A DNA stretch of 64,000 nt, taken from the NCBI RefSeq assembly GCF_053078305.1, contig NZ_CP166879.1. One strand, written 5' to 3'. Position 1 is the stretch's first letter, and each line of letters begins with the position of its first letter. The notes under the pieces are model-generated. The model did no database searches. It worked only from the letters and a program-made list of their open reading frames with translations, and had not been told where the DNA came from. The position numbers were made by a program, and so were the translations under genes. Positions 39,376 to 41,102 of the stretch are shown piece after piece.

Positions 39376-41102
39376 ATGCGAAATAAAAATATAATCATGT
39401 TGCTTATGAGTAGTTTGATTTTGTCAGGATGTGGGCCGCAACCTGAGAATAAGGAAAGTCAGCAACAACAACCCAGTACTCCCACAGAGCAGCAAGTGCT
39501 TGCCGCGCAGCAAGCTGCAATAAAAGAGGCTGAGCAAAGCGCCGCCGCCGCGAAAGCCTTGGCCCAGCAAGAAGTGCAACAATATTCAGACAAACAGGCT
39601 TTACAGGGGCGATTGCAGGAAGCGCCAACATTTGCAAGAGCGGCTAAAGCAAAAGCTACACATATCGCAAATCCAGGAACCGCTCGCTACCAGCAGTTCG
39701 ATGATAATCCGGTTAAGCAGGTAGCGCAAAATCCGTTGGCGACGTTTAGTCTTGACGTTGACACTGGCAGTTATGCGAATGTAAGGCGTTTCCTCAATCA
39801 AGGGCTGTTACCTCCGCCAGACGCTGTGCGGGTGGAGGAGATAGTCAATTATTTCCCGTCTGATTGGGATATCAAAGACAAACAATCTATTCCGGCCTCT
39901 AAGCCAATACCTTTCGCTATGCGCTACGAATTGGCACCTGCACCATGGAATGAACAGCGAACATTGCTGAAAGTTGATATCCTGGCGAAAGATCGCAAAA
40001 GTGAAGAGTTACCAGCTTCTAATCTGGTCTTTCTTATCGACACTTCTGGTTCAATGATTTCTGATGAACGTTTGCCACTTATCCAGTCTTCGTTGAAATT
40101 ATTGGTCAAAGAACTTCGTGAGCAGGATAACATTGCCATCGTGACCTACGCTGGCGACTCCCGTATTGCATTGCCTTCTATCTCCGGGAGTCATAAGGCG
40201 GAAATTAATGCCGCAATTGATTCGCTGGATGCCGAAGGCAGTACCAATGGCGGTCCGGGCTGGAACTGGCTTATCAGCAGGCGGCGAAGGGGTTTATTAA
40301 GGGCGGTATCAATCGCATTTTATTGGCCACTGACGGTGACTTTAACGTTGGTATTGACGATCCAAAATCGATTGAATTAATGATCAAAAAACAGCGGGAG
40401 TCCGGTGTTACTCTGTCGACGTTTGGCGTGGGGGATGACAATTACAACGAGGCAATGATGGTGCGAATTGCCGATGTTGGCAACGGTAACTACAGCTACA
40501 TTGATACCCTCTCTGAAGCGCAGAAAGTATTGAACAGTGAAATGCGGCAGACGTTGATTACCGTAGCAAAAGATGTCAAAGCGCAAATTGAGTTTAACCC
40601 CGCGTGGGTAACGGAATACCGTCAGATTGGTTATGAAAAGCGCCAACTTCGGGCGGAAGATTTTAATAACGACAACGTTGATGCGGGGGATATTGGCGCA
40701 GGCAAACATATAACGTTGTTATTTGAATTAACGCTGAACGGGCAAAAAGCATCAATTGATAAGTTACGCTATGCCCCGGATAACAAATTAGCGAAATCGG
40801 ACAAAACGAAAGAACTGGCCTGGTTAAAAATTCGCTGGAAATACCCGCAGGGAAAAGAAAGTCAGTTAGTTGAATTCCCGCTGGGGCCAACAATAAACGC
40901 GCCCTCTGAAGATATGCGTTTTCGCGCAGCAGTAGCTGCATATGGGCAAAAGTTACGCGGTTCTGAATACCTGAACAATACCTCCTGGCAGCAGATCAAA
41001 CAGTGGGCTCAGCAGGCAAAAGGGGTAGATCCACAGGGTTACAGGGCGGAATTTATTCGCCTGATTGAACTGGCGGATGGTGTGACTGACATCAGTCAGT
41101 GA
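39376..41102 (+). pseudogene. yfbK: von Willebrand factor A-domain lipoprotein YfbK, disrupted by a 1-nt frameshift near 40255
   Basis: ORFs 39376..40380 (334 aa) and 40323..41102 (259 aa) overlap in different frames; together ~575 aa; lipobox LSGC at N-terminus; MIDAS DTSGS in first ORF and the rest of the vWA domain (LLATDGDFNVG) in the second. Confidence 0.75.

Follow-up and report, generated by a model that had tools for sequence, protein, structure and literature searches.

The yfbK gene of the window, the 64,000-nt stretch of DNA analyzed here, is laid out in two reading frames, which raises the question whether this reflects a genuine inactivating mutation, an error of the assembly, a recoding signal or an ancestral split gene. 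The ORFs listed between 38000 and 43000 include an upstream ORF and, in a different frame, a downstream ORF that starts with (L)ATDGDFNVG.... There is no continuous ORF of ~575 codons; the frame breaks at codon 294 and a stop follows after 334 codons. The locus is composed of the following parts.

39376-41102, plus strand: yfbK, 1727 nt in two reading frames
39376-40380, plus strand: upstream ORF, 334 amino acids
40323-41102, plus strand: downstream ORF, 259 amino acids
39376-40254, plus strand: yfbK codons 1-293 in the native frame, encoding the signal peptide, vWF_A and the first half of VWA
40254/40255 (T/C), plus strand: deletion junction, at which the G of codon 294 is gone
40255-40380, plus strand: the 41 unrelated codons (PGWNWLISRRRRGLLRAVSIAFYWPLTVTLTLVLTIQNRLN) with which the upstream ORF ends out of frame, then a premature TAA at 40378-40380
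40257-41102, plus strand: yfbK codons 295-575 with the gene's own stop, -1 relative to the start frame

A megablast comparison of 39376-41102 with 5426 complete E. coli genomes identified the gene as yfbK, encoding a 'vWA domain-containing protein', and the RefSeq annotation of the matching gene is likewise yfbK. The gene is located between yfbL and elaD, as expected of the YfbK family. Its identification as yfbK, which an earlier note had made without database searches, is borne out by this annotation, by the lipobox and by the combination of vWF_A, VWA and YfbK_C domains.

The upstream ORF starts with MRNKNIIMLLMSSLILSGCG..., reads as normal YfbK up to ...DSLDAEGSTNGG and continues with PGWNWLISRRRRG... 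to the TAA at 40378-40380, its end being ...GSTNGGPGWNWLISRRRR.... Downstream, the open frame extends from 40221 and, reading ...SGLELAYQQAAKGFIKGGINRILLATDGDF... and ...SGLELAYQQAAKGFIKGGINRILLATDGDFNVG..., ends with the gene's own stop at 41100-41102. When aligned with yfbK of E. coli XH990, which is intact (1728 nt, 575 amino acids), the gene differs only once in 1727 nt, by a one-base gap at which the window has ACCAATGGCGGT-CCGGGCTGGAAC and XH990 ACCAATGGCGGTGCCGGGCTGGAAC. The base lost is the G that opens codon 294 (GCC, Ala), in the context GGCGGT[G]CCGGGC; the junction reads GGTCCGGG in the window and GGTGCCGGG in the form with the extra G. The position of the loss is unambiguous, because no other single-base removal yields the window sequence. 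It had been proposed in the earlier note that yfbK is split by a single-nucleotide frameshift, through loss of one base in a ggt-ccg-ggc context outside any long homopolymer. The alignment confirms this, with the context now placed as ggt-[g]cc-ggg, and the missing G is flanked by T and C with no homopolymer at the site. The peptide NGGAGLELAYQQAAKGFIKGG, which had been given for the intact K-12 protein, matches the allele of the XH990 lineage (position 291), but it is not exact for K-12, which has T304 (...QQATKG...). As expected of a frameshift pseudogene, the gene is intact in close relatives, a premature stop is present and a compensating second indel is absent.

The break was also analyzed with respect to the domains of the protein. 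In an intact 575-amino-acid relative, Pfam places vWF_A (PF12450) at residues 102-199, VWA (PF00092) at 216-383 and YfbK_C (PF12034) at 393-568. The upstream ORF of the window matches vWF_A and positions 1-76 of the VWA model, whereas the downstream frame matches positions 83-169 of the VWA model and YfbK_C (E 1e-67). The break is thus located inside the VWA domain. The motifs that matter here are distributed as follows.

39421-39432, plus strand: lipobox L16-S17-G18-C19 within MRNKNIIMLLMSSLILSGCG, read from the sequence with the pattern [LVI][ASTVI][GAS]C
40039-40053, plus strand: MIDAS DxSxS motif DTSGS (D222-S226), upstream frame
40243-40245, plus strand: MIDAS Thr290, upstream frame
40326-40340, plus strand: ATDGD (residues 318-322), downstream frame
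40332-40334, plus strand: MIDAS Asp320, downstream frame

The MIDAS motif DTSGS and the segment LLATDGDFNVG had been assigned to different frames, and this assignment stands, with D222-S226 in the upstream and ATDGD in the downstream frame. The break site is positioned between the MIDAS DxSxS and Thr on one side and the MIDAS Asp on the other. Consequently these elements are not on one polypeptide, DTSGS and T290 being in frame 0 and D320 in the -1 frame. Sequence matches to solved structures contained none for YfbK itself. The closest structures (PDB 4jdu, 3ibs and 6jp8; E ~1e-6) belong to BatA/BatB-type VWA proteins and to the calcium-channel alpha2-delta subunit, which have the MIDAS DxSxS...T...D layout in common with YfbK, a likeness that is remote and at the domain level only. 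Intact E. coli YfbK proteins (K-12 b2270, WP_001244806, and the lineage allele WP_001244802) have the same lipobox and the same domain architecture as the protein encoded in the window, and alleles encoding WP_001244802 are nucleotide-identical to the window yfbK save one base. In contrast to these, the window gene is broken in frame at codon 294, which makes a 575-amino-acid product impossible.

The neighborhood of the gene is conserved. The order nuoN ... yfbM-yfbL, divergent from yfbK, which in turn converges on elaD-rbn, is the same in XH990, ES5 and K-12. The window is colinear with E. coli and contains no insertion of more than one base, which excludes IS elements; a Shigella origin was rejected on these grounds. 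Two intervals around yfbK deserve a separate entry.

41123-41156: inverted repeat of 15 bp without mismatches, with a loop of 4 nt, between the convergent yfbK and elaD
35600-37600: variable islet between nuoN and yfbM with yfbO-like, yfbN-like and SMI1/KNR4 genes

The hairpin at 41123-41156 probably acts as a bidirectional terminator, judging from its sequence and position. No obvious polar effect of the frameshift is expected, since no gene on the same strand follows yfbK before this hairpin, yfbL being divergent and elaD convergent. Consensus promoters and terminators, for which the surroundings of yfbK were scanned, did not exceed what shuffled sequences yield. The islet is absent from XH990, and one stretch of it is only ~80% identical in K-12; in an E. 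coli B derivative, ISEcB1 adjoins nuoN. Within the islet, about 3 kb upstream of yfbK, the gene of the SMI1/KNR4 family (36937-37510, minus strand) consists of two ORFs of 106 and 92 amino acids, compared to one ORF of 190 amino acids in ES5, because a G7 tract at 37188-37194 replaces G6. The same split, with gene calls of 106 and 91 amino acids, was located in four independent assemblies, and the G7 split is a real, widespread homopolymer variant. In elaD (minus strand) a 9-nt tandem repeat, ATTGAAACT, occurs three times at 41557-41583 and encodes repeated SFN residues. Relatives have two or three copies, which contributes to the length range of ElaD from 402 to 410 amino acids between strains.

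Contigs of the same lineage were retrieved via the exact ElaD protein of the window. GCA_043582385.1 encodes an intact YfbK of 575 amino acids and shows 0 other differences from the window over 7061 nt; GCA_018683495.1, also with an intact 575-amino-acid YfbK, differs by two SNPs and the G over 9233 nt. The complete RefSeq E. coli genomes among the best matches listed reached at most ~99.5-99.8% identity to the window over 1-16000, 28000-52000 and 39376-41102. The deletion junction was found in 0 of 1623 records matching an 81-nt probe in the 5426 complete E. coli genomes, and a 26-mer spanning the junction had 0 matches both in metagenome contigs and in GTDB species-representative genomes. 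An exact look-up of the shortened proteins, with six alternative starts, among ~15 billion recorded sequences gave no full match. The sole exact match was a C-terminal piece of 214 amino acids, which occurs at contig ends and through another frameshift. The same deletion was present, however, on contig JPQG01000003.1 of GCA_000736735.1, which was found via the neighboring YfbN protein. This contig is 100.000% identical to window positions 26226-46942 (20,717 nt), and no protein is called on it between yfbL and elaD. According to the accessible text of PMC5323612, JPQG00000000 is E. coli strain 48, a Shiga-toxin producer from roe deer with subAB2-3. GCA_000736735.1 is presumably the source of the window itself, and the deletion therefore still rests on a single assembly.

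These comparisons bear directly on the idea that the two-ORF architecture is an ancestral, conserved split gene. No support for such an arrangement was found among the relatives analyzed: K-12 and all same-lineage relatives harbor a single yfbK ORF of 575 amino acids, yfbK is also intact in ES5, the best megablast matches listed are 1728 nt long and annotated as one yfbK CDS, and a full-length match is present in 2513 complete E. coli genomes. The shortened products are also missing from the ~15 billion recorded proteins. An ancestral split has a probability close to nil and is considered refuted by the alignments with orthologues. The earlier note had named an ancestral two-ORF layout as the observation that would overturn a frameshift; in close relatives, as in thousands of E. 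coli genomes, the gene instead forms a single ORF. Only slightly less improbable is a rescue at the level of expression, by which a -1 frameshift (with G_GGU_UUA, 40290-40296, as a possible site) or reinitiation after termination at TAATG would still give useful YfbK. To offset the one-base deletion, a -1 slip would be needed within 40221-40380, the 160-nt overlap of the two frames. Two elements, one inside this overlap and one at its end, were considered for a rescue.

40290-40296, plus strand: G_GGT_TTA, the only frame-0 X_XXY_YYZ heptamer in the overlap 40221-40380
40378-40382, plus strand: TAATG, the premature stop, overlapped by an ATG in register with the downstream frame (Met336 in the native protein)

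The overlapping frames and the canonical X_XXY_YYZ heptamer in frame 0 resemble genes with programmed -1 frameshifts such as dnaX and the IS3/IS911 transposases. The window yfbK nevertheless differs from these in lacking a stimulatory structure, in the poor class of its heptamer, in its lack of conservation and in having single-frame relatives. About 0.2 such heptamers are expected by chance in 53 codons, and G_GGT_TTA is in frame solely owing to the deletion. In relatives the identical sequence is read in another frame, so that slippage has not been under selection. The 84 nt downstream of the heptamer (40297-40380) fold with -16.7 kcal/mol and thus show no stimulatory RNA structure relative to shuffled sequences (z = -0.57). 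G_GG.U_UU.A is outside the heptamers with >0.1% unstimulated frameshifting and outside the efficient E. coli classes (PMC4066793), and U_UUA reached only 1.8-3.6-fold over a background of 0.064% even with the IS3 pseudoknot (PMC4066793, Sharma et al. 2014). Moreover, even after a slip at G_GGT_TTA, ~13 residues of the VWA core would be wrong. The heptamer is judged to be there by chance, rather than as a signal for recoding. Reinitiation is favored by the overlap of the premature stop with the ATG, and a fragment of 240 amino acids without signal peptide could conceivably arise in this way. It would, however, also lack half of the domain, and no Shine-Dalgarno sequence precedes either start. 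Programmed frameshift signals had been described as none obvious; with a lone heptamer at chance level, no stimulatory fold and no conserved two-frame layout, this description is upheld.

The weightier alternative to a mutation is a consensus error, in which the G is present in strain 48 and was dropped by a draft that was probably based on long reads only, leaving yfbK intact. This is a substantial possibility, short of even odds. It agrees with the finding that the deletion occurs in one assembly only, which matches the window at 100% along 20,717 nt, and that the nearest relatives are identical except for the missing base. For related strains, the accessible text of PMC5323612, from the laboratory behind JPQG, describes PacBio SMRT sequencing and de novo assembly with SMRT Analysis and leaves short-read polishing unstated; a PacBio-only assembly is accordingly stated there for sister strains and presumed for strain 48. 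The 1.42-Mb contig of GCA_000736735.1, deposited in ~2014, fits such a draft. A second private one-base indel occurs in the same window, in the T homopolymer at 60699-60705. Assemblies made from long reads only typically retain single-base indels as residual errors, and most long-read consensus errors fall in homopolymers. The base missing from yfbK, in contrast, is not in a homopolymer. In addition, the G7 tract at 37188-37194 and a T7 tract at 39230, both of which differ from ES5, recur in independent assemblies, so that tract lengths in the source assembly look reliable. Apart from yfbK, indels between the window and ES5 are confined to three homopolymers, of which one splits the SMI1/KNR4 gene and two are common to independent assemblies. 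All other coding sequences mapped from ES5 are unbroken (42/42), and an alignment of window positions 1-16000 with strain D8 has no gaps. Relative to GCA_018683495.1, seven SNPs in ~26.8 kb are private to the window, six of them G:C>A:T and one A>G.

37457, 38606, 50780, 53620, 54111, 57295 and 60437: SNPs private to the window in comparison with GCA_018683495.1

Substitution errors are rare in long-read consensus sequences. The divergence seen in the private SNPs should therefore be real, and a private indel is to be expected at roughly such a density. The ratio of private indels to SNPs in the same 27 kb, 2:7, is high for natural variation. Given the non-homopolymer site and the intact relatives, the genuine inactivating mutation that had been called plausible is favored over a consensus error, and a recent private loss of function by deletion in yfbK is assigned a probability of about 0.57.

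Some further differences were recorded alongside this comparison. The private tract at 60699-60705, in the nudI-yfaZ intergenic region, is T7 in the window and T6 in ES5, GCA_018683495.1 and GCA_016697025.1; this extra T may be genuine or may be a consensus error in a homopolymer, and it has a bearing on how good the source assembly is. The private SNP at 38606 is a derived G>A change in yfbL (minus strand), 1.65 kb from the yfbK lesion, that leads to P195S in YfbL. All outgroups have G at this position, and no record of the same YfbL protein was found. The same applies to the allele of ArnT (52558-54210), for which there is also no record of the same protein. The seven private SNPs are too few to tell ordinary AT-biased mutation from a special spectrum. 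Compensating one-base gaps at 24494 and 24498 in nuoF relative to ES5 turned out to be an alignment artefact. The segment at 24494-24498, GAA GCA GGG CTG CTC versus GAA GCG GGC TTG CTT, really contains four synonymous substitutions.

If the deletion is a mutation, its consequences for the protein can be predicted. yfbK is predicted to encode an envelope lipoprotein composed of an N-terminal vWF_A domain, a VWA domain that binds metal and YfbK_C, and deletion of the G in codon 294 would inactivate it. Translation from the normal start gives 293 native residues and 41 unrelated ones before the stop at 40378-40380. The shortened product retains the lipoprotein signal, vWF_A and the first half of the VWA fold, but not the second half of VWA with the MIDAS Asp320, nor any part of YfbK_C. 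Half of a Rossmann-type fold would be expected neither to fold nor to bind metal, so the protein would be non-functional and probably degraded. A C-terminal fragment from any reinitiation would be devoid of an export signal. The lesion would be recent, private to one strain, E. coli 48, and not rescued by recoding, which would be in keeping with the frequent loss of the dispensable yfbK locus in E. coli and Salmonella. What the locus shows is thus a recent pseudogene of an ordinary kind, or else a consensus error, and no new mechanism is involved.

Loss of yfbK was frequently observed elsewhere. At least 80% of the gene is present in 2513 of the 5426 complete E. coli genomes (megablast). In ~1500 complete genomes only the last 40 bp (query 1688-1727) remain, with 100% identity and beside elaD. 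NEBExpress, an E. coli B derivative and the one scar-bearing genome examined, has a shortened yfbL beside the 40-bp scar. This suggests one old deletion of yfbK and part of yfbL that is now widespread. In GCA_036633205.1 yfbK carries a nonsense codon at position 389, and in the Logan assembly ERR4561775 an A6>A5 frameshift at codon 338. CP067307.1 has no yfbK match and a transposase gene called between yfbM and rbn, and yfbL is frameshifted in XH990. Published lists report a disrupted yfbK for Salmonella Paratyphi C and for Typhimurium DT12a (L927) and U288, and Keio yfbK deletion mutants are viable with minor screen phenotypes only. yfbK is hence a dispensable gene that is often lost. The lesions of GCA_036633205.1, ERR4561775, the genomes with the 40-bp scar and Salmonella affect the same non-essential gene in independent events. 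The window allele differs from them in site and lesion type, and its exact form was found in no other genome. A more far-reaching reading is that the deletion is real and one case of a recurrent, possibly adaptive loss of a yfbL-yfbK(-elaD) envelope module, with YfbK as a surface or periplasmic protein of the adhesion type whose loss is favored in some hosts. The deletion in about half of E. coli, the nonsense, frameshift and IS lesions and the pseudogenes of host-adapted Salmonella are the instances behind it; the reading is considered unlikely.

In itself the finding is of little importance: it amounts to a null allele of one strain, or to an error of the assembly, and the gene is non-essential. 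For annotation it means that yfbK of E. coli 48 should be marked as frameshifted, and the site offers a cheap test of the consensus quality of the strain-48 assembly. It also adds one more data point to the repeated decay of the yfbL-yfbK region in E. coli and Salmonella, a pattern that could help to direct studies of what YfbK does.
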